The notes under the pieces are model-generated. The model was not told the origin of the DNA. It worked only from the letters and a program-made list of their open reading frames with translations, and made no database searches. From Acidobacteriota bacterium (GTDB taxonomy: Bacteria > Acidobacteriota > Thermoanaerobaculia > Multivoradales > JAGPDF01), in NCBI GenBank assembly GCA_045862895.1, contig BTUO01000006.1, forward strand, positions 1-64,000: 64,000 bases of DNA, in the 5' to 3' direction. Shown one piece after another: positions 14,327 to 59,450 of this stretch. Both the position numbers and the translations under genes were made by a program. Each line of letters starts with the position of its first letter. The first letter of the stretch is position 1.

Positions 14327-15172
14327 TCAGGGCGCGACCGCGCTCCAGATCGCGGTGCTGGCGGACTCGAAGCCGTCGCAGTAGACCCCGATCGGGGAGT
14401 CGCAGTAGAAGCTGTCGTTGACCAGGAGCAGGACGGTGACGGTCTCGCTGCCGCTCGGAGGCAGCAGCAACGAGAACTGCCAGCCACCGGTGAAGTCGGC
14501 CGGACCGAACGGCAGGCCGGTGTTGTCGAACTCGGTGATCGCCGCGTCCGAGAGCAGTGCCGGGACGTCGCCGGCGCCGAGGGGCGCGACGAGGTAGCCG
14601 CTCCACCCGGGCGATCCGGAATAGGCGGCGCGCTGCGAGCCGGAGTCGGAGAGCTCGATCAGCCCGTTGGGCGACCACTGCGCGAGCCGCGCCGAGTCGT
14701 TGCCGAAGTCGGGACGGACGTCGAAGTCGGCGAAGTGGAAGATGTCGAGCGCGAGCGGCTCGACCGCGCTGAGGTTCTCGACGGTCAGACTCATCTGGAC
14801 GAAGCCGCCGGGGGCGCCGATCTGGGGCCCGAGATCGAGCAGGATGGTGATCTCGGTCGCGGCGAACAGGCCGCGACCCGCGACGTCGTCCCACGCGATC
14901 AGCGACTCGTTGCCGACGTAGCTCTGCGAATCGGGTTGCGGCAGCGGGAACTCCCGCGTGTCGCCGGCGACGCGGAACCACCAGCCGGTTTCGAACAGGA
15001 AGTCGTCCGCCGGCGCCGAGCCGACGCCGATCAGGTCGGCGGTCGGCGTCGCGTCGAAGGGCGTCAGCGTCCTCCGGAAGGTCACGTCCCCGGCGGTCGT
15101 CTCCCCCTGCGCGAGCCCGGGGGCGGCCACGAGGGCGCCGAGGACGAGCAGGGTCCCGAATCGAATCCGCAT
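14327..15172 (-). CDS. secreted hypothetical protein carrying the C-terminal DGFE...WS..P tag
   Basis: Signal peptide MRIRFGTLLVLGALVAAPGLAQG. Ends ...YCDGFESASTAIWSAVAP. Confidence 0.7.
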   Translation of the reverse strand: MRIRFGTLLVLGALVAAPGLAQGETTAGDVTFRRTLTPFDATPTADLIGVGSAPADDFLFETGWWFRVAGDTREFPLPQPDSQSYVGNESLIAWDDVAGRGLFAATEITILLDLGPQIGAPGGFVQMSLTVENLSAVEPLALDIFHFADFDVRPDFGNDSARLAQWSPNGLIELSDSGSQRAAYSGSPGWSGYLVAPLGAGDVPALLSDAAITEFDNTGLPFGPADFTGGWQFSLLLPPSGSETVTVLLLVNDSFYCDSPIGVYCDGFESASTAIWSAVAP

Positions 15173-15323
15173 GACGAAGGCTCCCGAAAGCCGACGAACG
15201 ATAGCGCAGCTCGCGCCCGCCGGGCCGGAGCATCCGCGGGCGCGCGGGTCGCGTACGATCCCCGGCGGAGGATCGATCTTGTCGAACGGCTCGGGCGGCG
15301 AATGCGGCGGACGGTGGGGAATC

Positions 15324-16241
15324 GTGGCGAGGCTGGCGCCGGGGGCGCTGGCGGCCCTCGTTCTCGGTGGCTGCGTGACGATGCGGCCCTATGCCGAGGT
15401 GGCGGCGACGCTGCCGGCGGACAGTCTGGTCGAGGTCGAGAGCCGGCGCGTGCACGTGGTCGACGTCGGCGCCGGCGAGCCGCTGGTGTTGCTGCACGGC
15501 TTCGGTGCTTCGACGCTGATCTGGGACGCGGTGATGCCCGAGCTCGCGCGCTCGCGGCGGGTGATCGCGATCGACCTCAACGGCTTCGGCTGGACCGAGC
15601 GACCGCGCGACCCGGCGGCGTACACGCTCGCCGGGCAGGAGCGCCTGGTGCTCGGCGTCGCCGACGCGCTGGGGATCGATCGGTTCGATCTCGCCGGCCA
15701 CTCCTACGGGGGAGCGATCTCGATCTTCCTCGCCTCGCGCCATCCGGAGCGGGTGCGCTCGCTGGTGCTGGTCGACTCGGCGATGCCGGCCTACGGCACG
15801 CTGCGGCGGCGCGACCGATTCGCGAATCGAGGCCTCACCGGGGTCTACGTGCGGACGATCGGGCTGACCCGGCGGCGGGTCCGCGCCGGCCTCGAGGCCT
15901 CGTACGCCGACGACTCGAAGGTCACCCCGGCGCTGGTCGAGGCCTACCTCGAGCGCCTGCGCGTCGAGGGGGTCGAGGACGCCTTCTACGGCCTGACCGC
16001 TCCCTCCGGCGCCCCCCCGGATCGCGTGGAGCTCGCGACGCTCGCGCTGCCGGCGCTCCTGATCTGGGGTTCCGAGGACGAGCTGGTCTCCGTCGCCGAC
16101 GGTCGCGCCGCGGCCGCGGCGATGCCGGACGCGACCTTCGTCGAGCTCGCGGACTGCGGGCACTCGCCGATGGAGGAGTGCCCGGCCGGCTTCGTCGAGG
16201 CGGTCGAGCCGTTCCTCGAGCGGGTCGCGTTCCTCCCCTGA
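15324..16241 (+). CDS. alpha/beta hydrolase lipoprotein
   Basis: GTG start gives MARLAPGALAALVLGGC, a lipobox. HGFG, GHSYGG nucleophile and a C-terminal His. Confidence 0.8.
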   Translation: MARLAPGALAALVLGGCVTMRPYAEVAATLPADSLVEVESRRVHVVDVGAGEPLVLLHGFGASTLIWDAVMPELARSRRVIAIDLNGFGWTERPRDPAAYTLAGQERLVLGVADALGIDRFDLAGHSYGGAISIFLASRHPERVRSLVLVDSAMPAYGTLRRRDRFANRGLTGVYVRTIGLTRRRVRAGLEASYADDSKVTPALVEAYLERLRVEGVEDAFYGLTAPSGAPPDRVELATLALPALLIWGSEDELVSVADGRAAAAAMPDATFVELADCGHSPMEECPAGFVEAVEPFLERVAFLP

Positions 16242-16317
16242 GGGGTGCGTCCTCGCGTCGGGGATTCCGGATCGCCGGGATCCGGCCCGCGGGCGCCGTC
16301 GCGACACGGAGGTCGTC

Positions 16318-20848: not shown

Positions 20849-22225
20849 GTGGTGGGCGTGAGCGGCTTCGGGGTCCGTCAGGTCGGGGCGGTCGGCGCAA
20901 TGCTCCTCGCGGTTGCCGCGACTCCGCTCGGCGCCGCGGCCATCACGCGCGGCCCCTACCTGCAGCGGGTGTCGCGCTCCGAGGCGATCGTCCGCTGGCG
21001 GACCGATGTCCCGACCTTCGGGCGGGTCTGGTGGGGGAACGCACCGGGGGCGCTGGAGCTCGACGCGACGTCGCCCTTCGCGACCACCGAACACCGGATG
21101 GTGATCGGTGCCCTCTCGCCCCGGCAGACGGTCTACTACGCGGTCGGCGACGCCACGGGCGTGCTCGCCGGTGACGACGCCGACCACCGGTTCGTCACCG
21201 CGCGCTCGGCCGGAGACTGGCGGCCGCTGCGGCTCTGGGTGCTCGGCGATTCGGGGACCGCCGACGCCGGCGCGATCGCGGTGCGCGACGGCTTCGCCAC
21301 CTTCGCTGGAGGCGCCCCGCCGGATCTCTGGATGATGCTCGGTGACAACGCCTACTCGACCGGCACCGACGCCGAGTACGAGGCGGCGGTCTTCGACCTG
21401 TATCCGGAGACGCTGCGCGCTGCCTCGCTCTGGCCGGCGCTCGGCAACCACGACGCGTTCTCGTCGGATTCTCCGACGCAGTCCGGTCCTTACTTCTCGA
21501 GCTTCTCGCTGCCGCGCGGCGGACAGGCCGGCGGCCGCCCGTCCGGCACCGAGGCCTGGTACTCGTTCGAAGCGGGACAGGCGCACCTGGTGGTGCTCGA
21601 CACCGCCGATTCGAGCCTCGCGCCCGGCTCGCCGATGCTGGCGTGGCTCGACCTGGACCTGGCCGCCAACCGGCGTCCGTGGACGATCGTCGCGTTCCAC
21701 CATCCGCCGTACACCAAGGGCTCCCACGACAGCGACGACCCGGCCGACTCGGACGGCCGGATGATCGCGGTGCGCGAGCGGGTGCTGCCGATCCTCGAGG
21801 CGCGCGGGGTCGACCTGGTGCTCTCGGGGCACAGCCACGGCTACGAGCGCTCGTTCCTGCTCGACGGTCACTACGGACCGTCGGTCAGCTTCGAGCCCTG
21901 GATGCGGCTCGACGCCGGCGACGGCGACCCCGACGGCGACGGCCCCTATCGCAAGTCGCTCGGCGCGCACGGCGGCACCGTCTACGTGGTCGCGGGTTCG
22001 AGCGGCAGCGTCCAGGGGACGATCGAGGCGCACCCGGCGATCGCGGTCGGTCTCGAGGCGCTCGGCTCGGTGGTGATCGACGTCGCCTCGAACCGGCTCG
22101 ACGTCCGCTTCGTGACGGTGACGGGCGCGGTCGCCGACCACTTCGCGCTCCTCGACGGCGACCTCGTCTTCGCGGACGGCTTCGAAGCGGGCGACGGGTC
22201 GGCCTGGGACCCGCCTTCGCCCTGA
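20849..22225 (+). CDS. secreted metallophosphoesterase (purple-acid-phosphatase-like), tagged
   Basis: GTG start. Motifs GDSGTAD, GDNAY, GNHD, HHPPY and GHSHGYER. Ends ...LVFADGFEAGDGSAWDPPSP. Confidence 0.75.
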   Translation: MVGVSGFGVRQVGAVGAMLLAVAATPLGAAAITRGPYLQRVSRSEAIVRWRTDVPTFGRVWWGNAPGALELDATSPFATTEHRMVIGALSPRQTVYYAVGDATGVLAGDDADHRFVTARSAGDWRPLRLWVLGDSGTADAGAIAVRDGFATFAGGAPPDLWMMLGDNAYSTGTDAEYEAAVFDLYPETLRAASLWPALGNHDAFSSDSPTQSGPYFSSFSLPRGGQAGGRPSGTEAWYSFEAGQAHLVVLDTADSSLAPGSPMLAWLDLDLAANRRPWTIVAFHHPPYTKGSHDSDDPADSDGRMIAVRERVLPILEARGVDLVLSGHSHGYERSFLLDGHYGPSVSFEPWMRLDAGDGDPDGDGPYRKSLGAHGGTVYVVAGSSGSVQGTIEAHPAIAVGLEALGSVVIDVASNRLDVRFVTVTGAVADHFALLDGDLVFADGFEAGDGSAWDPPSP

Positions 22226-22459: not shown

Positions 22460-23071
22460 ATGCGGAACCCACGCTGGTGGTCGCTGGTTTGGCTCGTCGG
22501 CATCTCGGTATCTCCTTCGGCGGCGCAGAATGCGCTGCTCAACCCTGACTTCGGCGTGGACGTCGCCGGCTGGCAGACCTTTCTCGGCAGCCTCGATCTC
22601 GACCCGATGCACGAAGACGCCGACGGCTGTCCCGAATCGTCGAGCGGCCGGCTGGTCGCCGCATCGCAGTCCGGCCCCGAGTTTCTCGGTCTGCTGCAGG
22701 CGACCGACTCGTGCCTCGACGTCGCTCCCCTCCAGGAGGTATGGATCGACGCGACGCTCTGGCTGCGCAGCGCCGGATTCGTCGCGGTCGGCTTGATCCT
22801 CCTCGAGTACACGGACGATGCCTGTACGACGTTCCTCGATCCGCCGGTCCAGACGGCGATCGAGCTCTCCGTCGGCTCGACTCCGGAGGCAGAGCATCTG
22901 TCGGTCACGACTTCGGCGGGAGTCGAGTCGGTCGGCCTGCAGATCGATACGGGGGCGATCGTCCCGAACGCTCTCCTGCTCGACCGGCTCTATCTCGGCA
23001 CCGCCGAGCGGGTTTTCGCGGACGACTTCGAAGGCGGCTCGACCTGTCGCTGGAGCGCCGGAGCGATCTGA
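22460..23071 (+). CDS. secreted CBM4_9-like jelly-roll domain protein, tagged
   Basis: Signal peptide MRNPRWWSLVWLVGISVSPSAAQ. The mature protein starts NALLNPDFGVDVAGWQ and ends ...VFADDFEGGSTCRWSAGAI. Confidence 0.6.
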   Translation: MRNPRWWSLVWLVGISVSPSAAQNALLNPDFGVDVAGWQTFLGSLDLDPMHEDADGCPESSSGRLVAASQSGPEFLGLLQATDSCLDVAPLQEVWIDATLWLRSAGFVAVGLILLEYTDDACTTFLDPPVQTAIELSVGSTPEAEHLSVTTSAGVESVGLQIDTGAIVPNALLLDRLYLGTAERVFADDFEGGSTCRWSAGAI

Positions 23072-23503: not shown

Positions 23504-24778
23504 TTGCTCCGATTGCATCCATGTGCAAGTCGCATCGCAGCCTTCTCTTGCCTCGCGGGTGCTGTAGGCAGTATTTCGAAGGGCCAGCTACTCGGGCCCG
23601 AGTTTCAAGTGAATACGTACACCACTAGCTCGCAAGAACGGCCGGCAGTTGCCGCGATCGGGGATGAGAGCTTCGTGGTCGTGTGGGAAAGCTACGGCCA
23701 GGACGGTTGGCACCTGGGGGTTTTCGGACAGCGCTTCGGCGACGGAGCGCAGCCAATCGGAAGCGAATTTCAAGTCAACTCGATGACGGTCGGCAGGCAG
23801 TTCCGAGTCGCGGTGGCCGCCGAACCGAGCGGCGAGTTCGTGGTGGCCTGGGAGAGCTACTACGCGAACGACACGGATGTCTTCGCTCGTCGTTTCGATT
23901 CCGAGGGCAACCCAGAAGGGGAGGAGTTCCAGGTCAACAGCCGAACATCGGGTGGGCACTGCTGCGTCGACGTTCATCGGGATGGCCAGGGCGGCTTTGT
24001 TGCTCTCTGGGAGAACACTCTCTATCCCTCTCCATCCGAGATTCTCTTCCGTCGATTCGATTCCAGCGGCGTACCAATGGGCGAAGAGGTCTCCGTTGCA
24101 GGCGGCCATCCGTTGATTGGATCGCCGCGTGCCTCGATGCTCGGAATAGAAGGCTTGGCGGTGGTTTGGGAAGACCGCCCAGGGACCGATTGGGACGTGC
24201 TGGCCCGTCGCTTGGATCCGACGGGACAGCCATTGGGTGAAGCGTTCGTCGTCAGCAGTCAAGCGACGTACAATCAAAGTTCTCCGAGTGTCGGAGCGGA
24301 CTCTGAGGGAAACTTCGTCGTGGTCTGGAACTCGACGATCGGTGGTACGGAGCAAGGCTTCGGGAGGCGATTCAGTTCGACAGGCAGCGCTCTGGGAGAC
24401 GAGTTCGCGATCAACTCCTTCTACCCCTGGAGCGAATGGGAGATAGACCCTGTCGTGGCAGTTGATGGTTCGGGATCCTTCCTGGTCACGTGGCTACCTT
24501 GGGGCGTGGACGAAATCCTTGGTCAGCGGTTTCGTCCGACCGGCGCTCCGGCGGGAAACCGATTTCAAATCAACGAGTACACGCCCGGGCATCAGATGCA
24601 TTCCGCCGTTGCGGCGAACGGCGCCGGGGACTTCGTGATCGTATGGGACAGCTACGGCCAAGACGGTTCACGACACGGAGTGTGGGGGAGACGACTCCGG
24701 ATGCCGTACTTCGCTGACGGCTTCGAATCCGCGGATGTCTGCGAATGGAGTGCGACATTGGGCGGTGACTGCGTGTGA
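23504..24778 (+). CDS. secreted protein of seven ~53-aa repeats (EFQVN-Y-T-G-Q...FVVVW-S-GQDG...GVFGRRF), probable beta-propeller, tagged
   Basis: TTG start plus signal peptide. Seven tandem repeats are readable in the translation. Ends ...MPYFADGFESADVCEWSATLGGDCV. Confidence 0.7.
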   Translation: MLRLHPCASRIAAFSCLAGAVGSISKGQLLGPEFQVNTYTTSSQERPAVAAIGDESFVVVWESYGQDGWHLGVFGQRFGDGAQPIGSEFQVNSMTVGRQFRVAVAAEPSGEFVVAWESYYANDTDVFARRFDSEGNPEGEEFQVNSRTSGGHCCVDVHRDGQGGFVALWENTLYPSPSEILFRRFDSSGVPMGEEVSVAGGHPLIGSPRASMLGIEGLAVVWEDRPGTDWDVLARRLDPTGQPLGEAFVVSSQATYNQSSPSVGADSEGNFVVVWNSTIGGTEQGFGRRFSSTGSALGDEFAINSFYPWSEWEIDPVVAVDGSGSFLVTWLPWGVDEILGQRFRPTGAPAGNRFQINEYTPGHQMHSAVAANGAGDFVIVWDSYGQDGSRHGVWGRRLRMPYFADGFESADVCEWSATLGGDCV

Positions 24779-26224: not shown

Positions 26225-26488
26225 AGGCGTCGTGGCCGATCCGCGGAAGCGGACCGGATCTCGAGCTCGCCGGCCTCTCGCACGACTTCCGGGAATCCGC
26301 GACCGGCGGCGTTCCATCCCGCGGCGGGGACTGTCCGAACGACCGAGGGGTGCGCGGTGCCGAAGCCCTCCCCGGCGAGGCGGGCCCCTGCCGCCCCCGC
26401 GGGGCGTGGCGGTGCTCGGCAGAGTCTTCATTCTGTCGAAAGCGACTGGGATCCAGGGGGGGGCGAGGGCACGAAGGAGACCGGCTCA

Positions 26489-27921
26489 TGCGCACGGGCA
26501 TCGCAGCGTCCACGTCCTCGATCCTCACCGCCTTCGTCCTCGTCGGCGCGGCGGGCGCCGAGCTGACTCCCGAGTGGATGACGCGGGTCGCCGTCGGCAA
26601 CTCGCTCGCCGCCGGACCGCAAGGACTGGTCGTCCGCGCCGACGGGGTCTCCTTCCAGACCGGCACCACGGGCTCGTCCTCGAACACCGACGTGACGACC
26701 CAGGCGTTCGACACCGACGGTGCGTCGCTCTGGTCGCACACCTTCGACGGTCCCGCCTCCTGGCACGACCAGGCGCGCGGGATCGCGCTCGGCGTCGACG
26801 GCCACGTCTACGTCACCGGCAACACGCCGGGTCCCGGCAGCTACGCCAACCTGCTGGTGCTCGAGTACGACGCGGCGACCGGCGCCCTGGTCGACAGCAT
26901 CCAGCTCGCCGCCGGACAGTGGACGTCGGAACACGGCGCTTCGATCGCGGTCGATGCCGAGGGCAACATCTACGTCGGCGGCGGCACGGTCGGCGACGGC
27001 GGCGACGCGTTGATCGTGTCGTTCGACGCCGAAGGCGACCTGCGCTGGCGCGAGACCTGGGACGGACCGGCGGAGTCGCCCTATTCCGGAGACACCGTCC
27101 TGGAGGTGCTGCTCGCGCCCGACGGCGACCTCGTGACCCTGATCCACGGGGTGATGGGCTCGCTGCATCCCGACTACGTCGTGCGCAAGTACGCCCGGGC
27201 CGACGGCGCGCTGCGCTGGCACTCGACCTGGGGCGTCAATGGTGGCGACTATCCGCGCGATCTCGAGCTCGACGCGCAAGGCGACGTCTACGTCACCGGC
27301 ACCGGCATCGACTTCGTCGACAAGTACTCGACGGTCAAGCTGCGCGGCAGCGACGGCGCGCTGCTCTGGCAGGGCTACGACACGTACGACCATCACAACT
27401 CGGCGACCGCCCTCGCGCTCGACGGCAGCGGCGGCGTCTACGTGACCGGCTCGGTCGACCCGGACGGCGATCGCTCCAACTCGAACGACAACTTCTTCAC
27501 CATCAAGCGCGACGCCGCGACCGGCGAGCACCTGTGGAGCCACCTCTACGGCGCCAACTGCCTGTACTGCTTCGACGCGCCGGCCGACGTCGCCGCCGAT
27601 CCGGCGGGGCACGTCTTCGTCGCGGGCCGGACCTCGTCGCCGCCTTACGCTGCGGACGCCATCCTGCTCGTACTGGATGCCGAGACCGGGCTGGAGCTGG
27701 ATCGCGGCATCGTGGCCGGCGCCAGCCCGAGCGAGGGCGTCGCTCCCGGCATCCTCCTGTTCGACGCCGACTTCGACCTCTACGACGGCGGCAGCTCGAC
27801 CGACTACGACACCGGCCAGATCCAGATGGGCGTCACGAAATGGACCTCGCTCGTCGATCCGATCCTCCGGGACGGGTTCGACGACGGCAGCACCGCGGCG
27901 TGGAGCGCGGTCGTTCCCTGA
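26489..27921 (+). CDS. secreted SBBP-repeat beta-propeller protein, tagged
   Basis: Signal peptide. Repeated D-x-x-G-N/H-V/I-Y-V-T/G-G blades. Ends ...ILRDGFDDGSTAAWSAVVP. Confidence 0.75.
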
Positions 27922-27984
27922 CCCCGGAAGCGCTCCCGCGACTGCGGTAGTCTGCGCCGCCATGACGGCCGGGCGCGACGCCAG

Positions 27985-32339: not shown

Positions 32340-33590
32340 ATGTCCACGACTTTGCGCACCCTCGCCGCCGCCCTGACGACGACCGTCCTGCTCGCCGCGC
32401 CAGCGGTCGCGGTCAAACGCCGCGCCTTCGTGACCTCGGTCTCGGGCAACGGCAACCTCAACTCCTGGCCGGACGCCGGAGGGCTGTTCGCTCTCGCCGC
32501 CGGTGACGCCATCTGTCGGGCGCGGGCGAACGCCGCCGGCCTGCCGTTCGCGAACTCCTATCGCGTCTGGCTGTCGACGGCGACGACCGACGCCTACTGC
32601 CACGTCCAGGGGCAGACCGGAGAGAAGGCCACCGGCTGCTCCGGCTCCCCGCTGCCGCGGGGTCCCTGGTACCGGGTCGACGGGACCACGGCGTTCGCGG
32701 CGGACCTGGACGAGCTGACCGGCAACCTCCACGAGGTGTACACCGGAGTCCTCCAGGAGGAGGACGGTACGGTGCTGACGGCGACCGACCCCTCCGGTTA
32801 CTGGACCGGCACGTCGGCGAGCGGGGAGGGAGTGTCCGAGACCTGCTCGAGCTGGGTCGTGGCGGCGGCCGACGTCCAGGGCCGCACCGGCACGGCGCTG
32901 TCGAGCGCGGTGCGCTGGACGGAGGCCTTCTCGACGGCCTGCGACCAGGATCGCCGCCTGCTCTGTCTCGAGCCCGGGCTCAGCGACCCGGTGCCTGTTG
33001 TTCCATGGCAGCCAGCGGCGCTCGCGTTCGTGACCAGCATGACGGGCAACGGCAATCTCGGGCAGTGGCCGGTCGCGGGCGACGCCACCGGAATCGAGGC
33101 CGGTGACGAGATCTGCTGCGCCCTGGCCGCTATCGAGCACCTGCCGGCGCCGGAGTCGTTCGTCGCCTGGCTCTCGGACTCGCAGACCGACGCGCGCGAC
33201 CGCCTGACTCTCGCCGGAGTACCCTATCGGCGGCTGGATCATCGGGTCGTCGCGACCTCGAAGGCCGACCTCGTCGACGGCACCAATCTGGACAGCCTGC
33301 ACGTCGACGAGACCGGGAGCTACGTCGACGACTTCCTGGTCGTCGCCACGGGGACGCTCGCCGACGGTACCTGGGAGGGGTCGAGCTGCGACGACTGGAC
33401 CGCGTCGCCTTCGACCAACGTCCGGAGCGGCTACGCCTCTTCGCTGAACGGCGGGACCTGGACCGCCGGCGTCGGCTCCGCCTGCATCACCAGCAAGCGC
33501 CTCTACTGCTTCTCGAACGTGGTCACGATCTTCTGGGACGGTTTCGAGCTCACGGGAGACGCCAGCCGCTGGTCGAGCGCCAGCCCGTGA
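32340..33590 (+). CDS. secreted protein with two DUF1554-like repeats (FVTS-x-GNGNL...W), tagged
   Basis: Signal peptide. Internal duplication readable (AFVTSVSGNGNLNSWPDAGG... and AFVTSMTGNGNLGQWPVAGD...). Ends ...FWDGFELTGDASRWSSASP. Confidence 0.7.
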   Translation: MSTTLRTLAAALTTTVLLAAPAVAVKRRAFVTSVSGNGNLNSWPDAGGLFALAAGDAICRARANAAGLPFANSYRVWLSTATTDAYCHVQGQTGEKATGCSGSPLPRGPWYRVDGTTAFAADLDELTGNLHEVYTGVLQEEDGTVLTATDPSGYWTGTSASGEGVSETCSSWVVAAADVQGRTGTALSSAVRWTEAFSTACDQDRRLLCLEPGLSDPVPVVPWQPAALAFVTSMTGNGNLGQWPVAGDATGIEAGDEICCALAAIEHLPAPESFVAWLSDSQTDARDRLTLAGVPYRRLDHRVVATSKADLVDGTNLDSLHVDETGSYVDDFLVVATGTLADGTWEGSSCDDWTASPSTNVRSGYASSLNGGTWTAGVGSACITSKRLYCFSNVVTIFWDGFELTGDASRWSSASP

Positions 33591-44711: not shown

Positions 44712-44875
44712 GGTGCCTCCTGTTGTCCCGGGTCGGGAAAGGGTCTGGTGGAAGTACGTGCGCGCCCGCAGCCGGGGTTGCGCGGAGGGACGACGCGGGC
44801 CTGCGGCGTTTCGAATCCGGTCCGAGCCTCGGAGTCAGTCCGGGATCCGGACGGGCTCGCAGTGACCTCATTCCT

Positions 44876-44894
44876 TGTTTTCAAGCGTTTACGG
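44876..44894 (+). promoter_or_regulatory. conserved 5' element TTGTTTTCAAGCGTTTACG, ~110 bp upstream of DUF11 paralog 1
   Basis: A near-identical element, TTGTTTTCAGTGGTTTACG (47832-47850), lies 107 bp upstream of paralog 2. Confidence 0.45.
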
Positions 44895-44985
44895 TGCTTC
44901 CACGATCGGCACCGTGATTGCCCTTCCCGATACTCGATGGCGGGCCGGAGCCCGCCGCGGTTCACAAACGATGGAGGAAGGGACG

Positions 44986-51319: not shown

Positions 51320-52852
51320 TCAGGGCTGCGCGGCGCTCCACTCCGTGAGGTCGTTCTCCTCGAAATCGGAGACGAACGGCATGCCGGTCAGGGCGAGCTG
51401 GACCGCGTCGAGCGCGTCGATGCGGCCAGCGCCGAAGGTGTTGTTCGGGAAGATCCCGGCGCTGACGCCGCACGCCCCGCCGAAGGCCGGTTCGAAAGCG
51501 GTGTCGCGGATGATCTGTTCGATCTCGTCGACCTCGCCGGCGAGCTCGGGCTTGGCCGAGATCAGGAGCGCGACCAGCCCGGCGACGTGCGGGCCGGCCA
51601 TCGAAGTGCCGGAGAACGAGGCGTAGCCGGTTCCCGGAATCGACGAGCGGACGCCGGAGCCCGGTGCCGAGATGTCCGGCTTCATCCGATTCGAGCCGTC
51701 GACGGTCACCGGGCCGCGGCTCGAGAACGAGGAGATCGAATCGGTGCTGGTCGTCGAGCCGACCGAGAAGGAGGCGTCGTAGATGGCGGCCGGAGTGTTC
51801 ACGGTGCTGCACGAGGAGCCGGAGTTGCCGGCCGAGACCACGACCACGATGCCGGCCGCGCGGGTGTTCTCGACGACCTGCTGGAGAATGTCGGGAGCGA
51901 CGCACCCTTCCGAGGGCGGGCAGCTCCACGAGTTGTTGATGACGTGGGGCGCCATCGCGGGGTTCGGATTCTGGCCGGCCAGGTCGGTCGGCGCGATGAA
52001 CCACTCGAAGCACTCCGAGTAGGTCGTGGGGGTGCCGTTGCCCTGGTCCATGTTGCGGCAGCCGATCCAGCGGGCGCCCGGTGCCATGCCGATCTGATTG
52101 ACACCACCGTCGTCGCCGACCATCGTCCCCATGGTGTGCGTCCCGTGCGAATCGTCGTCGCAGGGGACGGTCGAGTTCGCGCCGCAGACCCCGCCCCCCG
52201 AGTGGATCGAATCGTGCCAGTGGTAGTCGTGCGCGGCGGACGAGCCGGTCCAGCCGCGGTACATGTCGCGCAGGGCGGGATGCTCCCAGTCGTAGCCGGT
52301 GTCCTGCCCGCCGATCACGGCGCCCTGGCCGTCGAATCCCAAGGCCCAGACGTCGTCGGCGTTGACCTTGAGGATGTTCCATTCGATCGCCAGCGGCGCC
52401 AGCGGATCGCCGGCCTCGACGCCGTCCTCCACGGGCGCGACGAGGCTCATGCGGGGATTGGCCTCCAGGCGAGCGACCTCCTCGCGCAACGCCAGTCGTT
52501 CGGCGAGCGCGAGGTCGCCCTCGACTGCGAGGAAGTTGGCGACCCAGAAGGAGCGGTGCGGGACCTTGTCGCGCTCGAGCTCGACGATCAGGTCGGCCTG
52601 CATGCGGGCCGCGTGCGCGCTCAGCGTCTCGAAGACGTAGCGCCCCTTGGCCTCCTTGCCGCGGATCGAGGCGGCGGCGGAGAGGTCGGCCTGGTTGGCG
52701 AGGACGACGAGCATCTCGACCTTGCCGTCGGCGGCGTCGGCCATCGCGCGCACCAGCGCCGGGTCGATCTTCGGCGAGAGCTCGGCGGCGGCCGGAATCG
52801 GCGTCGCGAGCGCGGCCAGGGCGAGAGCGGTCACGGCGGAAACGCGTAGCAC
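51320..52852 (-). CDS. secreted S8 subtilisin-family serine protease, tagged
   Basis: Signal plus propeptide. Catalytic D (GQDTGYD), H (DDDSHGTHT) and S (SGTSMAGPH). Ends ...PFVSDFEENDLTEWSAAQP. Confidence 0.85.
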   Translation of the reverse strand: MLRVSAVTALALAALATPIPAAAELSPKIDPALVRAMADAADGKVEMLVVLANQADLSAAASIRGKEAKGRYVFETLSAHAARMQADLIVELERDKVPHRSFWVANFLAVEGDLALAERLALREEVARLEANPRMSLVAPVEDGVEAGDPLAPLAIEWNILKVNADDVWALGFDGQGAVIGGQDTGYDWEHPALRDMYRGWTGSSAAHDYHWHDSIHSGGGVCGANSTVPCDDDSHGTHTMGTMVGDDGGVNQIGMAPGARWIGCRNMDQGNGTPTTYSECFEWFIAPTDLAGQNPNPAMAPHVINNSWSCPPSEGCVAPDILQQVVENTRAAGIVVVVSAGNSGSSCSTVNTPAAIYDASFSVGSTTSTDSISSFSSRGPVTVDGSNRMKPDISAPGSGVRSSIPGTGYASFSGTSMAGPHVAGLVALLISAKPELAGEVDEIEQIIRDTAFEPAFGGACGVSAGIFPNNTFGAGRIDALDAVQLALTGMPFVSDFEENDLTEWSAAQP

Positions 52853-53758: not shown

Positions 53759-55081
53759 TCAATCGGTCCACTCGTGACGGAAGGGGCCGGGTGCTGTCGC
53801 CGACCAGCGCGTCGTGTCGCCCGACTCGAAACCGTCGAGCAGCAGGCCGAATCCGCGGAACCGGCGCGCGTAGAGATCCACACTGGCGTCTCCGCCCTCG
53901 TACCACTCTCCGACCAGAACGGGATTTGAGTCGACGTCGAAGTCGGCAACCGGAACACCGAGATTCCAGGAGGAAGCTAGATCGAAAGGTGAGCCGACGA
54001 GTTCTCCTTGGGGAGAGTAGAGCGATCCTCTGACGAGATCGTCCGCGAGACGGGAAAGGAGCAGCCAGCTTCCGTCACGAGCGCGCTCGACGGAAACGTC
54101 GTCTGGTGCGGTGCCCAGGTCGACATCCGCCAGGATCTCTCCCGACGGCGAACAAAGCCGTGCTCGGTACCAAGTAGCGTGGAATATTTCGTTTCCCCAC
54201 GAGACGACGGCCGAGCCGTCGGAGCCCGCGCCGAGCCGCAAGCCGATGATCCCGTAGTCGTCATAGCCTTCGGCGACGTGGATCTCCTCCCCGAGTTCCC
54301 CGTCGGCTTCGAAGGCTCGGACGTAGACGCCGAACCCGGGGCCCGGTTGGCGCGCATACCCCAGGATGAACTGGCCAGGTCCGAAGGCATCGACGTCGAG
54401 CCCACCGAGACGAGAATAGGGTCCGGTGGCGATCGGAAACGCGGGGCCCACGGGCTGGCCGCTTGCTCCCAGTTTCCGCCCGAAGATCGCCATGCCACCG
54501 TCATGGGGCGCTAGCCACACCGCGACGTATCCACCCGCCGGGTCGGCGGCCACGTCCGGTGCCGTGGGCGCGGGCTCGTCGGGCTGGTGAATCGCGAAAG
54601 GCGGGCCGATCGGAGATCCATCCTCGGTGAAGGCACGTCCAAGGACGTTGTGGACAATCTGATCCTTGCTGTGATTCCAGACGACGACGAAACCGTGATC
54701 GTCCGTCGCGACCTTCGGGTAGGTGTAGTGATTTCGTGGGCCGGCATCGACGCGAAACTCCGGCCCCACCGGATCGCCGCTGGTCGAAAAGTAGCGGGCG
54801 AAGACGCCATGATCGACCGGCGGTTGATCGAGAGTCTCCCAGACGACGAGAAACCGCCCGTCGGACATTCGCGCCACGTCGGGCGCGATCTGCAAGCCCT
54901 CGGTGGTCGTGTTGACCAACTGGGCGGGATCGATCGGGGTGATCTGCGCGCGTGCGGATTCGGCGACCGCTCCGACGATCACCGCGGAACCGGCAATCCA
55001 CAGGTTGAGGCGCCGAGGAAGAATCCTGACCGGAGCTGTCGTCTTCCAGAGGGAAAGCGAGGGGCCCGCTTTGTCGACCAC
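53759..55081 (-). CDS. secreted repeat (beta-propeller-like) protein related to 23504-24778, tagged
   Basis: GTG start. Degenerate FxVxW...GxFGRxF repeats. The tail ...LLLDGFESGDTTRWSATAPGPFRHEWTD carries a 10-aa extension. Confidence 0.6.
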   Translation of the reverse strand: MVDKAGPSLSLWKTTAPVRILPRRLNLWIAGSAVIVGAVAESARAQITPIDPAQLVNTTTEGLQIAPDVARMSDGRFLVVWETLDQPPVDHGVFARYFSTSGDPVGPEFRVDAGPRNHYTYPKVATDDHGFVVVWNHSKDQIVHNVLGRAFTEDGSPIGPPFAIHQPDEPAPTAPDVAADPAGGYVAVWLAPHDGGMAIFGRKLGASGQPVGPAFPIATGPYSRLGGLDVDAFGPGQFILGYARQPGPGFGVYVRAFEADGELGEEIHVAEGYDDYGIIGLRLGAGSDGSAVVSWGNEIFHATWYRARLCSPSGEILADVDLGTAPDDVSVERARDGSWLLLSRLADDLVRGSLYSPQGELVGSPFDLASSWNLGVPVADFDVDSNPVLVGEWYEGGDASVDLYARRFRGFGLLLDGFESGDTTRWSATAPGPFRHEWTD

Positions 55082-56615: not shown

Positions 56616-56619
56616 GCGC

Positions 56620-57309
56620 TCAGGGCGCCGTCGCCGACCAGCCCGACGTCGAGCCGTTCTCGAAGCCGTGGATCAACAGCGCGTCGCAGCGGGTGGCCTC
56701 GGGGCAGAAGTAGGCGCGATCGAAATGGAAGGCGATCGAGCCGCCCATCACCGACTTGCGCGCGCGTAGTCCGACGATCGCGCTGCGCGCTCCGGCCGGA
56801 GCCGGAACGGTGAGGAAGTCCGCGTGCTGCCACCCCGTGCCGTCGGTCGACGAGGTCGCCCCAAAGGCCCACTGGTGCAGCGAGGATCCGGTGCAGTTGT
56901 CGCCGTCGAGCCACATCACGCTGAGGCCCGAGGACCCGGCACTCTGGGCGCCCGCGGCGAGCCGGACGTCGGCTCCGACGAGAAAACGCTGGCCGACGTA
57001 GCCGGAGAGGCCGCTCACGCACTGCTTCGCGATGACGGTGATCCCTTCGGCCGAAGTGTCGTTGGTCAGCAGCAGCGAGCCCGACGCCGGGCTGCCGCCC
57101 TGGTCGATCGCGGAGTAGCCGATCGAGCCGACGCCGACGTTGTAGAGCGACCAGCCCGAAGTCGAGCCGTTGAACCAGCCGTTGCTGAGCAGCCCGTCGT
57201 AAGCGGCCCGGGCCGGAACGGCCGCCGCGGCGAGCGCGAACAGGGCGAGGGCGATCCGCCCGTTCGAGCGTCGAGCACGCCCCGAGGGGCGCTGAGGAAA
57301 GAGGGTCAT
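56620..57309 (-). CDS. secreted CBM4_9-like jelly-roll domain protein, tagged
   Basis: RBS AAGGAG. Signal peptide. The mature N-terminus ...LLSNGWFNGSTSGWS and the C-terminus ...LIHGFENGSTSGWSATAP are near-copies of each other. Confidence 0.65.
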   Translation of the reverse strand: MTLFPQRPSGRARRSNGRIALALFALAAAAVPARAAYDGLLSNGWFNGSTSGWSLYNVGVGSIGYSAIDQGGSPASGSLLLTNDTSAEGITVIAKQCVSGLSGYVGQRFLVGADVRLAAGAQSAGSSGLSVMWLDGDNCTGSSLHQWAFGATSSTDGTGWQHADFLTVPAPAGARSAIVGLRARKSVMGGSIAFHFDRAYFCPEATRCDALLIHGFENGSTSGWSATAP

Positions 57310-57320
57310 GTCCAGGGTCT

Positions 57321-57343
57321 CCTTGCGATGTCCCGTCGCAAGG
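57321..57343. promoter_or_regulatory. hairpin CCTTGCGA-tgtcccg-TCGCAAGG overlapping the RBS of the 56620-57309 gene
   Basis: Read directly; 8-bp stem. The RBS lies in its left arm on the minus strand. Confidence 0.4.
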
Positions 57344-57388
57344 GGAACGCGCGGCCCGCCGGAAACGGCTCAGGTGGGGCCGGACGGC

Positions 57389-58312
57389 TCAGGCTTCGGT
57401 CAGTGTCCTGCCGCGGCCCGGGACGACCAGGACCGGGCACGGCGCGAGCCTCGCCACGCGCGCGGCGACGCTGCCGAGCAGCAGCCGGTCGAGCCCGGTG
57501 TGTCCCGAAGTGCCGAGCACGACCAGGTCGGCGCCGGTCTCGGCCGCGCGGTTGAGGATGGTCGGCGCCGGGGCGCCGTGCCAGACCTCGATCGCGGCCC
57601 GGCCCTCGAAGCCCAGCGCGGTGGCGAGCGTGCCGAGCGCATCGCGCGCCGCCGGTACCAGCTCGGTGACGATCATCGAAGTGGCGCCGAGCCCGGCCGG
57701 GTTCATCGGCAACGGTACCTCGAGGTCGGGGACGACGTGGAACAGCTCGAGCGTGGCACCGGTCGCGTCGGCGAGCGCGGCGGCGTCGGCCGCGGCGCGC
57801 TTCGAGGTCGCGGAGAAGTCGACCGGGGCGAGGATCCTGGTGAGCTTGCCAACCTCCCTGCCGTCGCGTCCCGGCACCACCAGCACCGGCCGTTCCGCCC
57901 GCCGCAGGACTTCCGACACGACGCTGCCGAGCAGCAGGTGCGCGGGGCCGCGACGGCCGTGGGTGCCCATCACGATCAGGTCGGCGTCGTCCGCCTCGGC
58001 GGCGTCGAGGATGCCGCGCTCGACCTCGGGGGCGCGCTCGATCGACTCGCGGATGCGCAGCATCCGGTCGCGGTGCGGTTCGAGCAGGGCGGCCATCTCC
58101 GAGCGCGCCAGTTCGCTCAGCCGCTCGTAGAGCTCGTCGGCTTCCGGGAAGTGGTGCTCGGGGTTGAACGGATCGGCGGTCCTGAGCGACAGCACGTGCA
58201 GCAGGTGGAGGTCGGCCTCGCCGAGGTCGGACCAGAGCAGGGCGTGGTCGAGCGCCGGCCGGCTGACCTCCGAGAAGTCGGTGGGGAAGAGAATGTGACG
58301 GAGACGGAGCAT
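57389..58312 (-). CDS. tandem universal stress protein (UspA x2)
   Basis: Two Usp domains, each with a G-x2-G-x9-G-S ATP-binding motif (GTHGRRG...GSV; GTSGHTG...GSV). Confidence 0.8.
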   Translation of the reverse strand: MLRLRHILFPTDFSEVSRPALDHALLWSDLGEADLHLLHVLSLRTADPFNPEHHFPEADELYERLSELARSEMAALLEPHRDRMLRIRESIERAPEVERGILDAAEADDADLIVMGTHGRRGPAHLLLGSVVSEVLRRAERPVLVVPGRDGREVGKLTRILAPVDFSATSKRAAADAAALADATGATLELFHVVPDLEVPLPMNPAGLGATSMIVTELVPAARDALGTLATALGFEGRAAIEVWHGAPAPTILNRAAETGADLVVLGTSGHTGLDRLLLGSVAARVARLAPCPVLVVPGRGRTLTEA

Positions 58313-58490
58313 GGCAGCCTCCTGGCGCCGTCCGGCGCCGGTCCCAGTCTCTCGCGACCGCGGCCGCAGGTCACTACCCGCGAGGGCAGGAAGCGTCGTC
58401 GCGGGGGCCGAGGGCCGTGTGACCGGCTGCGCGGCGGCGGGCCGGCTCGTCGCGATAGCGTGCGCGGCGACCCCGACCCGAGGAGTTCGT

Positions 58491-59450
58491 ATGACGAGCG
58501 CACGCCCCCTCGCCCTCGCACTCGCCCTGCTCGCGCCGACCGCCGCCGCCGCGCGATTCCCGTTCGGCGGCGATCCGGCGGACTGTTCGCTGGCCGAGAC
58601 CGTGCCGGACCCGATCTACGCCCCGTCGAACGGCGTGCTGACGGTCCAGGTCGTGGTTCACGTCATCGCCAACGGCACCTGCGCGCTGGGGGATCTTCCC
58701 GACGACGTCGTCGCCGACCAGATCGAGGTGTTGCGCGAGGACTTCCTGGCGCTGCCCGGGACGCCGGGCGCGGCGGGAGCGGACACCGGCATCCGCTTCG
58801 TGCTGGCCTCGGTCGACCCGGACGGCGAGCCGACCGACGGCATCGAGCACTACTGCGACGAGCTCTGGTACCAGGACGACGCGCCGTACTGGGAGACGAT
58901 CGCCTGGGACCCCGCGCGCTACCTGAACCTCTACGTCAACACCGCGGACAACGCGCGCGGCTACGTGCCGGTGCTGCCGGCGACGCCGGGAGCGCCCAAC
59001 GGCCTGCCGGAAGATCGCGTGGTGATCAACACTCTCGCCTTCGGGCGGCAGAACCCGCCGCCGATCCCTCATCACGCCGGCGGTCGGACCTCGACCCACG
59101 AGATCGGTCACTACCTGGGCCTTTTCCACACCTACTTCGACGGCTGCGGCACGGCCGCCCCTCCGGGCTGCTACACGTCGGGCGACCGCATCTGCGACAC
59201 GGCGCCCGACGCCGCGGCACAGGACGTCTGCCCGGTCGGCGCCACCAGCTGCGGCGGTTTCCTGTCGCCGATCGACAACTACATGCAGCTCACCGACGAC
59301 CCGTGCCTGACCGGCTTCAGCGCGGAGCAGGGGATGCGGATGCGCTGCACGCTGATGCACTACCGCCCCGGGTTGCTCGGCCCGCAGGCGCTCTTCCTCG
59401 ACGATTTCGAGCTCGGCGATCTGTCGCGCTGGAGCTCGACCTCGCCGTAA
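58491..59450 (+). CDS. secreted M43/pappalysin-like zinc metalloprotease, tagged
   Basis: RBS GGAG. Signal peptide. Metzincin motif HEIGHYLGLFH. Ends ...FLDDFELGDLSRWSSTSP. Confidence 0.75.
   Translation: MTSARPLALALALLAPTAAAARFPFGGDPADCSLAETVPDPIYAPSNGVLTVQVVVHVIANGTCALGDLPDDVVADQIEVLREDFLALPGTPGAAGADTGIRFVLASVDPDGEPTDGIEHYCDELWYQDDAPYWETIAWDPARYLNLYVNTADNARGYVPVLPATPGAPNGLPEDRVVINTLAFGRQNPPPIPHHAGGRTSTHEIGHYLGLFHTYFDGCGTAAPPGCYTSGDRICDTAPDAAAQDVCPVGATSCGGFLSPIDNYMQLTDDPCLTGFSAEQGMRMRCTLMHYRPGLLGPQALFLDDFELGDLSRWSSTSP

Follow-up and report, generated by a model that had tools for sequence, protein, structure and literature searches.

A lineage-restricted C-terminal tail on diverse exported proteins of Acidobacteriota

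Why do ten exported proteins with different domains, encoded close together in one acidobacterial genome, end in nearly the same short peptide? The window analyzed here, the whole stretch of 64,000 nucleotides at the start of contig BTUO01000006.1, belongs to a MAG deposited at NCBI as 'Acidobacteriota bacterium' AMXMBFR36. Ten of its ORFs encode a signal peptide and the terminal pattern [ILV]-F-x-D-G-F-E-x-G-D-x-S-x-W-S-x-x-x-P. A local HMM trained on these ten tails, searched against a six-frame translation of the window, scored them at 22.8 to 34.9 bits (independent E 3e-6 to 4e-10) and separated them from the next best match at 8.9 bits. The translations and coordinates given by an earlier sequence-only reading of this DNA were reproduced, as were its seven ORFs in which Pro is followed directly by the stop codon (c1, c2, c5, c6, c7, c9 and c10, numbering the carriers by position). 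A stop codon lies 0 to 9 residues past each tail, and all ten host ORFs have a coding GC3 signature. The nine tails of equal length have a mean pairwise nucleotide identity of 57%, both AGC and TCG codons are used for their conserved Ser, and comparison of the DNA 3' of the ten stop codons found nothing in common. Therefore, the likeness of the tails is kept at the protein level and does not reflect recent copying.

The ten carriers

Carrier c1 (14327..15172, minus strand) is an orphan exported protein of 281 residues (NCBI GMU66349.1, annotated as hypothetical) with the signal peptide MRIRFGTLLVLGALVAAPGLAQG, no match in Pfam or NCBIfam, and the tail YCDGFESASTAIWSAVAP (14327-14383 including the stop, 32.5 bits). 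Carrier c2 (20849..22225, plus strand) is a calcineurin-like, purple-acid-phosphatase-type metallophosphoesterase (Metallophos 2.6e-13) with the tail FADGFEAGDGSAWDPPSP (22169-22225, 23.5 bits). On the same strand follow c3 (22460..23071), a small all-beta exported protein of 203 residues with a related domain-start motif, LLNPDFGVDVAGW, behind its signal peptide and a tail, FADDFEGGSTCRWSAGAI (23015-23071, 32.1 bits), that ends ..AGAI rather than on Pro, and c4 (23504..24778), an FQVN-repeat protein of 424 residues and lower GC3 with the tail FADGFESADVCEWSATLG plus the extension GDCV (24710-24778, 30.0 bits). Carrier c5 (26488..27921, plus strand) is an SBBP/NHL beta-propeller protein of 477 residues (SBBP 3.4e-11) with the tail LRDGFDDGSTAAWSAVVP (27865-27921, 27.2 bits), and c6 (32340..33590, plus strand) is a DUF1554-like Cys-rich protein of 416 residues whose tail FWDGFELTGDASRWSSASP is one residue longer (33531-33590, 22.8 bits). 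The pairing of the c6 family with the tail was seen again in other metagenomes (P0001, P0038, P0056, P0070 and P0124).

The next three carriers lie on the minus strand. Carrier c7 (51320..52852; GMU66379.1) is an S8 subtilase of 510 residues (Peptidase_S8 4e-43) in which the catalytic domain extends to about residue 460-486 and the tail, FVSDFEENDLTEWSAAQP (51320-51376, 27.8 bits), occupies residues 493-510. Carrier c8 (53759..55081) is a second FQVN-repeat protein of lower GC3, with 440 residues and the tail LLDGFESGDTTRWSATAP plus the extension GPFRHEWTD (53759-53845, 34.9 bits). Carrier c9 (56620..57309) is a small all-beta exported protein of 229 residues with the tail LIHGFENGSTSGWSATAP (56620-56676, 32.9 bits); its N-terminal strand, LLSNGWFNGSTSGWSLYN, has the core NGSTSGWS in common with its own tail and scores 3.9 bits with the tail HMM, and its AF2 model is predicted as all-beta at low confidence (pLDDT 49). 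Carrier c10 (58491..59450, plus strand) is an M43 (pappalysin-type) zinc metalloprotease of 319 residues (Peptidase_M43 3.8e-11) with the tail FLDDFELGDLSRWSSTSP (59394-59450, 32.6 bits).

The sequence-only reading held that these proteins are alike only in their signal peptide and tail. Sec-type signal peptides, judged by eye, are present on all ten, and blastp outside the tail found no homology between any pair other than c4 and c8, which are homologous there (E 2e-25). Both c2 and c5 proved much shorter than the long ORFs that end in their tails. For c2, the GC3 signal moves to another frame near residue 450 of the long ORF, the upstream part is the wrong frame of an RtcB gene (19491-20720), and translation starts at GTG 20849 or ATG 20900; for c5, the upstream part is the wrong frame of a fatty-acid hydroxylase gene (25076-26224) and the start lies at about 26488.

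Distribution, fixed end, and relation to jelly-roll domains

A profile search with the tail among 1.84 billion proteins returned 1683 cluster representatives at E<=1e-3, and a strict DNA pattern that takes in the stop codon found at least 118 loci in at least 67 species-level genomes. In this sample, defined by the strict pattern and the matches listed, at least 57 of the at least 67 genomes carry an acidobacterial label (Acidobacteriota, Thermoanaerobaculia or Holophagae, mostly one of the latter two), and a single MAG has as many as six matches. The ten copies in the window are therefore not the only ones. The tail is not a local or recent feature; it is a genuine lineage-restricted C-terminal tag, mainly of the class Thermoanaerobaculia of Acidobacteriota, a little-studied class of soil and water bacteria. 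Among the matches listed, 130 of 131 HMM matches in pattern loci are C-terminal, including 24 of the 25 in the same loci that were not selected by the pattern. Among the 96 C-proximal copies in the unbiased list of representatives, exactly five residues follow the Trp in 68, and 64 of these 68 have Pro as the last residue. The consensus module has 18-19 residues, [ILV]-F-x-D-G-F-E-S-G-D-T-S-x-W-S-x-x-V-P-COOH, and nearly all Thermoanaerobaculia carriers have one copy each. Carriers include proteases, phosphoesterases, propellers, beta-helix, FG-GAP and MAM proteins, and one multihaem cytochrome.

The M43 protease family provides a view of how the tail is attached. In Myxococcus and Corallococcus orthologues the C terminus is the end of the catalytic domain, in acidobacterial orthologues the catalytic domain is followed by a linker of 4-10 residues and then the tail, and in planctomycete orthologues other C-terminal domains are added instead. 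Across 49 tail-bearing orthologues, conservation is 0.70 in the tail, 0.74 in the catalytic domain, and 0.32 in the linker. AF2 modeled c10 with a mean pLDDT of 82.9; residues 301-319 have low confidence (pLDDT 53-65) and no assigned strand, and are not packed on the protease. The M43 orthologues show that the tail is a bolt-on module, and both they and the low-confidence model speak against its being the final strand of the domain that carries it. The tail is demonstrably under purifying selection, modular, strictly C-terminal with a fixed end, taxonomically restricted, and without a membrane-spanning part.

The tail does have relatives in sequence: many other proteins contain the motif at internal or N-terminal positions, where it makes up the opening strand or strands of jelly-roll domains of the CBM_4_9 (PF02018), PF14099 (polysaccharide-lyase-like) and MAM-like types. 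Internal copies match the CBM_4_9 and PF14099 profiles at positions 1-5 and are spaced 192-221 residues apart, and MAM-like domains directly upstream of tails open with the same motif. Tandem naked copies 3-8 residues apart occur at some metagenome C termini (P0025, P0035, P0039, P0041, P0048 and P0103), and a tandem-tail peptide weakly matches CBM_4_9 positions 5-23. Because the motif elsewhere starts CBM4_9, MAM and PF14099-type jelly-rolls, the tail corresponds in sequence to an isolated first beta-hairpin (beta1-turn-beta2) of such a domain, a correspondence that is new in this analysis. The tail shares F-x-[DN]-G-F-E-x-G-x-x-x-W with these domains and keeps approximately their first 16-20 positions, but lacks the other 110-190 residues and has features of its own, T-S before the Trp and x-x-V-P-COOH after it.

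Candidate functions of the tail

A signal peptide was detected by a crude rule in 74 of 96 5'-complete carriers from other genomes, and only 4 are lipoprotein-like. The window also encodes exported proteins without the tail, roughly half of its total; they include outer-membrane barrels (a TonB receptor, DUF481), one lipoprotein and others, so the tail marks a subset. Because the tail has no transmembrane helix and its carriers have ordinary signal peptides, it would act only once Sec export is complete, whether in the periplasm, on the outer membrane or extracellularly. The best explanation, to which we give even chances of being right, is a sorting or retention tag recognized in trans: joined by a short variable linker to unrelated, Sec-exported soluble proteins, it would be read either to take the carrier across the outer membrane or to keep it at the cell surface or in the matrix. 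If so, the tail may mark a novel route of protein secretion or anchoring. How it might be read is a more tentative matter. The invariant I/L, F, F, W and V sit at positions that would face the core of a jelly-roll, and we therefore propose, as a possibility that we think more probably wrong than right, that the tail serves as a donor hairpin and docks on an acceptor beta-sandwich, perhaps with assistance from Ca2+ bound by its D/E/D residues.

Neither the window nor 0.9 Mb of related loci yielded a reader protein, an acceptor or any secretion component. The other genes of the window are an ordinary mix, and of the families beside tails only Ser/Thr kinases and sulfatase-TPR proteins recur, both of them abundant paralogues. 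When 984 ORFs of tail-bearing genomes were searched with HMMs of the full domains behind the internal motif, no 'headless' domain body came up, the one exception being a weak partial match inside carrier L104. Two further observations count against a sorting tag: many surface-anchored proteins have long stalks, whereas the linkers here have 4-10 residues, and the tandem naked metagenome copies suit a binding repeat at least equally well.

Such a binding repeat is an unlikely alternative, in which the tail would be an autonomous mini-module, a Ca2+-stabilized aromatic beta-hairpin descended from a CBM and not read by any machine, that sticks secreted proteins to the cell's own exopolysaccharide, LPS or a substrate glycan. 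The origin of the motif at the start of CBM_4_9-type domains, the close spacing of the tandem copies, as is common among binding repeats, the aromatic (F, F, W) and acidic (D, E, D) nature of the conserved residues, and the lack of dedicated machinery in the window and related loci are all consistent with this proposal. However, the first strand of CBM and jelly-roll domains is structural and lies outside the ligand site, 18 residues are very few for a stable glycan site, and neither the strict end nor the single copy in nearly all Thermoanaerobaculia carriers is expected of a generic binding repeat.

The fixed distance of the free C terminus from the Trp, with Pro in about 70-94% of copies, could instead point to a stability or quality-control element, which we consider improbable. 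A Pro-ended hairpin might shield its carrier from carboxypeptidases, many of which C-terminal Pro withstands, and from tail-specific proteases, or it might be a degron or activation signal for a periplasmic PDZ protease of the Prc/CtpA/DegS type, to which a tail predicted to be flexible would be accessible. Protection requires only the last one or two residues, however, whereas at least 13 upstream positions are conserved like the catalytic domain, and about half of the window's exported proteins do without the tail. Pro is unusual as the last residue of a PDZ ligand, since PDZ domains and Prc normally favor hydrophobic or small non-Pro residues, and no PDZ protease is encoded nearby in the window. 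Finally, a tail that acts in cis as a last strand, intramolecular chaperone or propeptide, or that is the functionless stump of a lost jelly-roll, is very improbable and largely refuted: a MAM-like jelly-roll directly precedes the tail in many related-genome carriers, where an edge strand could pair in cis, and truncation is plausible as an origin, but the last domains of the carriers are structurally unrelated (S8, M43, metallophosphoesterase, propellers, DUF1554), M43 orthologues are intact without a tail and AF2 leaves that of c10 unpacked at low confidence, the downstream DNA holds other genes and not the remainder of a domain, and a stump should decay, whereas the tail is conserved as protein despite synonymous divergence, with a precise stop, in at least 67 genomes.

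Comparison with known sorting and donor-strand systems

The claim that the tail lies outside described sorting families was upheld. Searches of Pfam and NCBIfam with full proteins and bare tails matched no sorting-signal model, the PDB held no match, and no description of such a tail was found in the literature. The tail agrees with six of Haft's eight sorting-signal criteria (1, 2, 3, 6, 7 and 8). Like the tripartite signals described by Haft and colleagues (LPXTG/sortase, PEP-CTERM/exosortase, GlyGly-CTERM/rhombosortase, MYXO-CTERM/myxosortase, IPTL-CTERM and others), it is found at the very C terminus in many copies per genome, has a lineage-restricted signature with several near-invariant residues, and is carried by otherwise unrelated proteins with N-terminal signal peptides whose orthologues in other lineages have no tail or different C-terminal modules. 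In contrast to those signals, and as the sequence-only reading had noted for the hydrophobic helix, it has neither a transmembrane segment nor an Arg/Lys cluster, and so cannot be retained in the inner membrane, where a membrane-bound or intramembrane enzyme would sort it. It also lacks an invariant Cys or Gly-Gly, ends in Pro-COOH, and has no cognate enzyme in the window or related loci. IPTL-CTERM-like tripartite tails are encoded separately in some of the same genomes, so the tail is a distinct system.

The CTD of the T9SS (the Por secretion tail of Bacteroidota) is likewise a helix-free, beta-structured C-terminal tag on Sec-exported hydrolases and adhesins that is read after export. However, the CTD is a folded beta-sandwich of ~70-100 residues from a different phylum, with no sequence match to the tail in Pfam or NCBIfam, and at 18-19 residues the tail is too small to fold alone.

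For the proposed donor-hairpin mechanism, chaperone-usher pili and SpyTag/SpyCatcher provide donor or split-domain precedents. Ca2+-assisted donor-strand complementation has also been described for extracellular beta-sandwich proteins, the archaeal cannulae and the TasA superfamily (bioRxiv 10.1101/2024.12.30.630787). In pili, cannulae, TasA matrix proteins and SpyTag, a short terminal beta-strand peptide whose hydrophobic residues point to the core fills the beta-sandwich of another protein outside the cell, as the tail might do by analogy alone; it has no sequence similarity to these donors. The donors in those systems are borne by homologous subunits that polymerize, whereas the tail is borne by dozens of unrelated enzymes.

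A C-terminal tail on exported proteins

Ten ORFs in the window end in the same short tail, as a sequence-only reading had claimed, and our translations match its ten tail sequences exactly. When an HMM built from these tails was searched against all six-frame stop-to-stop peptides of the window, the ten scored 22.8–34.9 bits and the next best peptide 8.9 bits, which confirms the observation. The tail lies 0–9 residues from the stop codon in all ten ORFs, each of which third-position GC marks as coding, and N-terminal Sec-type signal peptides are present on every carrier. Pro directly precedes the stop codon in seven, the number counted earlier; the tail of the small all-beta protein c3 ends in AGAI, and only the two FQVN-repeat proteins extend beyond the tail, c4 by four residues (GDCV) and c8 by nine (GPFRHEWTD). 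These two proteins (c4, 23504–24778, + strand; c8, 53759–55081, − strand) have third-position GC of ~0.6–0.8 versus ~0.9 in their neighbors, and may be later acquisitions with a decaying or variant tag. They are also the sole carrier pair with homology outside the tail, so that the claim that the carriers share only tail and signal peptide fails for this pair and holds for all others. The long ORFs read earlier for the metallophosphoesterase c2 and the propeller c5 turned out to be chimeric, with 5′ halves in the wrong frame of the RtcB and fatty-acid hydroxylase genes; the true starts are near 20849/20900 for c2 and at 26488 for c5.

The window carriers comprise a metallophosphoesterase, an S8 subtilase, an M43 protease, an SBBP/NHL propeller, two FQVN-repeat proteins, a DUF1554-like protein, two small all-beta proteins, and an orphan. 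The tail is absent from about a dozen further exported proteins encoded in the window, among them a TonB receptor, a DUF481 barrel, a fasciclin, a DUF2911-TPR protein, a thioredoxin-like lipoprotein, an M1 peptidase, and two DUF11 proteins. Only part of the exported proteome is thus tagged, and this part is made up of soluble proteins of types that are usually extracellular. Two adjacent exported DUF11/CLIPPER-repeat proteins (44875–47565 and 47939–49462, both + strand) are without a tail and their homologs in other Thermoanaerobaculia MAGs (loci L118, L084, L100, and L109) have one, so that presence of the tag varies inside a single family. The window belongs to a contig of 318,911 bp in the NCBI MAG 'Acidobacteriota bacterium' AMXMBFR36, which came from an anammox reactor community. 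Of four window proteins looked up in this record (proteins GMU66349–GMU66382), three, among them the orphan c1 and the S8 subtilase c7, are annotated as hypothetical. GC content is 0.654 in window positions 1–4000 and 0.69–0.73 in the remainder. Past the right edge, a very large RHS-repeat protein of at least 1690 aa (locus L001, 1–2125, approximately window positions 65185–67309), with only a faint Pfam RHS_repeat match, adjoins the M1 peptidase.

Searched exhaustively with HMMER, 1.84 billion cluster representatives yielded 1683 proteins that match the tail profile at E ≤ 1e-3. Re-scoring with a local HMM covered the best 150 of these 1683 proteins and nine tail-bearing fragments from a word-indexed search, and gave 91 C-terminal, 89 internal, and 15 N-terminal copies of the motif. 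The C-terminal copies have a sharp consensus, F[AV]DGFESGDTSAWSATVP, and the consensus tail peptide is IFADGFESGDTSAWSATVP. In this unbiased representative set, exactly five residues follow the Trp in 68 of the 96 C-proximal copies, and Pro is the last residue in 64 of these 68. The word-indexed search, in which only 57 candidates were scored, placed the tail on fragments from other metagenomes and found one N-terminal copy.

One genome per GTDB species was scanned for DNA encoding the pattern D-G-F-E-x-G-D-x3-W-S-x3-P-stop, which occurs at no fewer than 118 loci in at least 67 assemblies. This search of related genomes, proposed in the sequence-only reading, extends the ten window copies to a class-wide feature. 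Among the matches listed, 57 of 67 assemblies are labeled Acidobacteriota, Thermoanaerobaculia, 'Holophagae', Ca. Multivoradales, or Ca. Sulfomarinibacteraceae, the last two being members of Thermoanaerobaculia; five are unclassified and five have other labels (two 'Deltaproteobacteria' MAGs and one each of Polyangiaceae, Gammaproteobacteria, and Gemmatimonadota). Several MAGs have four to six strict-pattern matches each among those listed. The MAG JAHZIX01 ('Deltaproteobacteria bacterium' P_S1_bin.14; loci L027, L030, and L107) has at least four tails, and single tails are found in L075, L092, and L117, from the MAGs labeled Polyangiaceae, Gammaproteobacteria, and Gemmatimonadota. These labels could reflect mislabeled or mis-binned contigs, or a real spread of the tag outside Acidobacteriota. 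In the fetched loci (0.9 Mb), 130 of 131 HMM matches are at ORF C termini, including 24 of the 25 that the pattern had not picked. An I, L, or V precedes the first Phe in 111 of 122 carriers, indicating that the module is really 19 residues long.

Carriers in the related genomes include InhA-like MAM proteins, S8 proteases, FG-GAP, beta-helix, and DUF11/CLIPPER proteins, and a multiheme cytochrome. A crude hydrophobicity rule finds a signal-peptide-like N terminus in 74 of 96 5′-complete carriers, only four of which have a lipobox-like motif. The cytochrome, a multiheme cytochrome c with a Cytochrome_C7-type match from a Ca. Multivoradales MAG (L006, 4918–6954, − strand), is a hint that extracellular electron-transfer proteins bear this tag as well. 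In 32% of the 122 carriers from loci and window, a Cys is found in the 12 residues before the tail, with 14% expected from composition (for example ..IQSCVSLIFADGFE and ..RLYCFSNVVTIFWDGFE); it probably marks a disulfide closing the preceding domain.

Modularity and origin of the tail

The tail is a bolt-on module, as is seen in the M43 protease c10. All compared homologs of this protein share the catalytic domain through ..RMRCTLxxYRPxL. In the acidobacterial homologs there follow a variable linker of 4–10 residues and then the tail; those from Myxococcus, Corallococcus, and other myxobacteria end at the catalytic domain, and those from planctomycetes have unrelated domains of ~120 residues or dockerin-like domains at the C terminus. 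Across 49 tail-bearing M43 orthologs, the most frequent residue per column reaches a mean frequency of 0.74 over the catalytic domain, 0.32 over the linker, and 0.70 over the tail. An AlphaFold2 model of c10 from a 64-sequence alignment gives a confident protease (mean pLDDT 82.9) and leaves residues 301–319 at low confidence (pLDDT 53–65) with no strand assigned. The tail is thus, at least in this carrier, not the last strand of the carrier's own domain, a possibility that had been named as one that would refute the idea.

The copies are held alike at the level of protein. Pairwise nucleotide identity among the nine window tails of equal length averages 57%, identical amino acids use the same codon in only 64% of cases, the conserved Ser after the Trp is encoded by both AGC and TCG, and comparison of the DNA 3′ of the tail stops across the window carriers showed nothing in common. 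The low identity, the two Ser codon families, and the unshared flanks rule out a mobile cassette and recent recombination, the latter having been suggested as the local alternative to a sorting class.

Judged by its sequence, the tail appears to be the isolated first β-hairpin of a concanavalin-like or jelly-roll domain, with an ending of its own, T-V-P-COOH. This relation is new, being absent from the earlier account. Where the motif occurs internally or N-terminally in other proteins, conserved domain bodies follow it and it recurs every 192–221 residues, and Pfam places these copies at profile positions 1–5 of CBM_4_9 (PF02018) and PF14099. The MAM-like jelly-rolls that directly precede tails in related genomes start with F-x-E/D-G-F-E-x-G-x-x-G-W, and a peptide with two tandem tails gives a weak CBM_4_9 match at positions 5–23. 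Membership of the CBM_4_9 or jelly-roll families entails a complete domain of ~130 residues above the gathering threshold. The tail has no complete CBM_4_9 domain (PF02018), as it matches profile positions ~1–23 only, scoring 11.9 bits where the cut-off is 25.9. From the match to jelly-roll starts, the evolutionary source of the tag is evident and its structural propensity can be predicted. Two naked tandem copies, 3–8 residues apart, are found at the C termini of the metagenome proteins P0025, P0035, P0039, P0041, P0048, and P0103 (for example FADGFESGDLSRWSPGTP-SKI-FADGFESGGLAAWSAVV), which argues that the unit is autonomous.

In the small all-beta protein c9 (56620–57309, − strand), the N-terminal strand that follows the signal peptide (LLSNGWFNGSTSGWSLYN, within residues 40–57) and the tail (LLIHGFENGSTSGWSATAP, within residues 211–229) have an identical core, NGSTSGWS, which suggests an internal duplication, or conversion between domain start and tail. 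The core is kept in three of four close homologs, and V replaces the second Ser in the tails of P0301 and P0302; the AlphaFold2 model of c9, from an alignment of only five sequences, has a pLDDT of 49, too low to inform on the tail. The propeller c5 shares its reading frame with the next ORF (27919–29889, + strand, 634 aa), with a single TGA between them and no further stop before the downstream gene. We take the shared frame as coincidence, because the downstream sequence is unlike the remainder of a jelly-roll domain; it encodes a protein with its own start, an N-terminal membrane helix, and no Pfam match. Stop-codon read-through into a domain was rejected, since the sequences after the stops are unrelated and the ORF in frame with c5 is this membrane protein.

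Candidate roles and the search for a partner

The tail is a selected, modular, strictly terminal, and lineage-restricted tag on exported soluble proteins, without a membrane anchor. Its earlier interpretation as a class of sorting signals stands as regards the comparative hallmarks and the lack of a known family, and needs qualifying in that the tail appears to derive from a known fold element and its function is one that we infer. The invariant residues are hydrophobic (I/L, F, F, W, V) and acidic (D, E, D). In jelly-roll domains, such hydrophobic residues would point into the core, and such acidic residues are commonly near structural Ca2+ sites. Most simply, a naked hairpin exposing residues of both kinds would dock onto a partner, and the tag would be read after Sec export, in the periplasm, at the outer membrane, or outside the cell. 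We consider the chances about even that the tail is a trans-recognized tag for sorting or retention. Within this reading, it is possible, if far from assured, that the tail acts by donor-hairpin complementation or strand augmentation on a β-sandwich acceptor, by analogy with the Ca2+-assisted donor-strand complementation of archaeal cannulae and TasA-type matrix proteins (bioRxiv 10.1101/2024.12.30.630787). More tentatively still, Thermoanaerobaculia may have a natural, hitherto undescribed 'tag/catcher' sorting system free of membrane helices, in which a jelly-roll-derived donor hairpin of 18 residues completes or augments a dedicated β-sandwich acceptor after Sec export. In such a system, each genome would encode dozens of exported enzymes and adhesins that end in the hairpin with its Pro-COOH, and the acceptor would gate outer-membrane secretion or hold the cargo at the cell surface or in the matrix by non-covalent binding.

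Alternatively, the tail could be a minimal Ca2+- or glycan-binding hairpin that sticks proteins to the matrix, an unlikely role that the tandem copies favor and the strict terminal Pro speaks against. Conservation of at least 13 residues upstream argues against an element for protection from proteases or for quality control by a PDZ reader, which we regard as improbable. A cis-acting or vestigial element is very improbable, being largely refuted by the AlphaFold2 model of c10 and the conservation at the protein level.

For the trans-recognized tag, a partner was sought beside the carriers. The non-carrier genes of the window are an unremarkable mix with no candidate machinery, and clustering of 984 ORFs from 118 related loci showed only abundant paralog families recurring beside tails, which we do not count as evidence for a linked sorting gene. 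A search of these 984 ORFs, a small sample, with HMMs of the two full domain types seen after internal motifs, for 'headless' acceptor domains, found none. The full-domain HMMs match carrier C termini over the motif alone (the first 15–17 positions of one model and positions ~30–55 of the other), and weak partial matches to the domain body lie only inside the carriers at L104 and L116, upstream of the motif.

The tail has the comparative-genomic hallmarks of a sorting signal, and there is a real chance that it is the half we can see of a new sorting mechanism. A large part of the predicted exoproteome bears it, including proteases, phosphatases, adhesin-like propellers, and a multiheme cytochrome, in a class (the acidobacterial Thermoanaerobaculia) that is widespread and essentially uncultured. 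Carriers are now annotated as 'hypothetical' or by catalytic domain only, and an HMM for the tail would at once improve annotation and prediction of localization in these genomes. It also supplies a phylogenetic profile, a handle for finding the cognate machinery. If the tail does act as a donor hairpin, a natural tag–acceptor pair with an 18-residue tag would be of biotechnological interest.

Comparison with known C-terminal signals

As a yardstick we used the eight attributes of small C-terminal sorting signals (Haft, bioRxiv 10.1101/2023.06.07.544157, section 5), of which the tail has attributes 1, 2, 3, 6, 7, and 8 and lacks 4 and 5. Its location is terminal (0–9 residues from the stop in the window; 130 of 131 related copies C-terminal), it is present in multiple copies (10 in 64 kb of one MAG; at least six strict-pattern matches in a MAG), and far more than the three nearly invariant residues of attribute 3 are conserved, with F, D, G, F, E, G, D, W, S, and P each in at least 117 of the 131 related-genome copies, the count for P being partly enforced by the search pattern (the unbiased set gives 64 of 68). 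Attributes 6–8 are seen in the signal peptides, in carriers that are unrelated save c4 and c8, and in M43 homologs that are tail-less (Myxococcus) or end otherwise (planctomycetes). The hydrophobic transmembrane segment of attribute 4 is missing, as the earlier reading had noted, because the protein ends five residues past the Trp. Nor is there a terminal basic cluster (attribute 5): tails end in ..S-A-T-V-P, and at none of the last five positions is Arg or Lys one of the five most frequent residues. The tail therefore behaves as a sorting tag on all comparative criteria other than those concerning the membrane; it falls outside the sortase/exosortase-type family and could not be processed as the members of that family are.

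The expectation that the tail belongs to no known sorting-signal family was borne out, as NCBIfam and Pfam searches with full carriers and bare tail peptides (E up to 10) gave nothing covering it. In the PDB, the tail profile matched nothing but designed propellers, spuriously and over 7 residues, and a protein bearing internal copies had no relevant match; a full-text literature search gave no description of the tail. Some tail-bearing genomes also encode ORFs with a classical tripartite C terminus resembling IPTL-CTERM (L074, L090, L100, and L016; for example ..ATPIPTLSSWGILVLIALVAVAGVSLARLRLG), so that a conventional sortase-type system coexists with the short tail.

Time and again, new machines have been discovered through C-terminal sorting tags, among them sortase, exosortase, rhombosortase, myxosortase, and the type IX secretion system (T9SS). 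To our knowledge, all sortase-type signals share a transmembrane helix and a basic cluster. The T9SS C-terminal domain is a folded β-sandwich of ~70–100 residues (the Por_Secre_tail or type A or B CTD models), for which the tail, at 18–19 residues and with no Pfam or NCBIfam match, is far too short, as had been argued. With neither helix nor basic cluster, and too short for a T9SS-type domain, the tail cannot have a reader that works like those systems. The outer-membrane β-signal recognized by BAM is a C-terminal strand with an aromatic end, usually Phe, on a β-barrel; in contrast, the tail ends in Pro and its carriers are soluble enzymes or propellers. The true barrel of the window, the TonB receptor, ends in ..LRF and has no tail. 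Finally, type I secretion substrates lack a Sec signal peptide and have a non-conserved signal of ~50–60 residues, often after RTX repeats, whereas the tail is short, highly conserved, and found on carriers with Sec signal peptides, in which Pfam and NCBIfam searches detected no RTX families.
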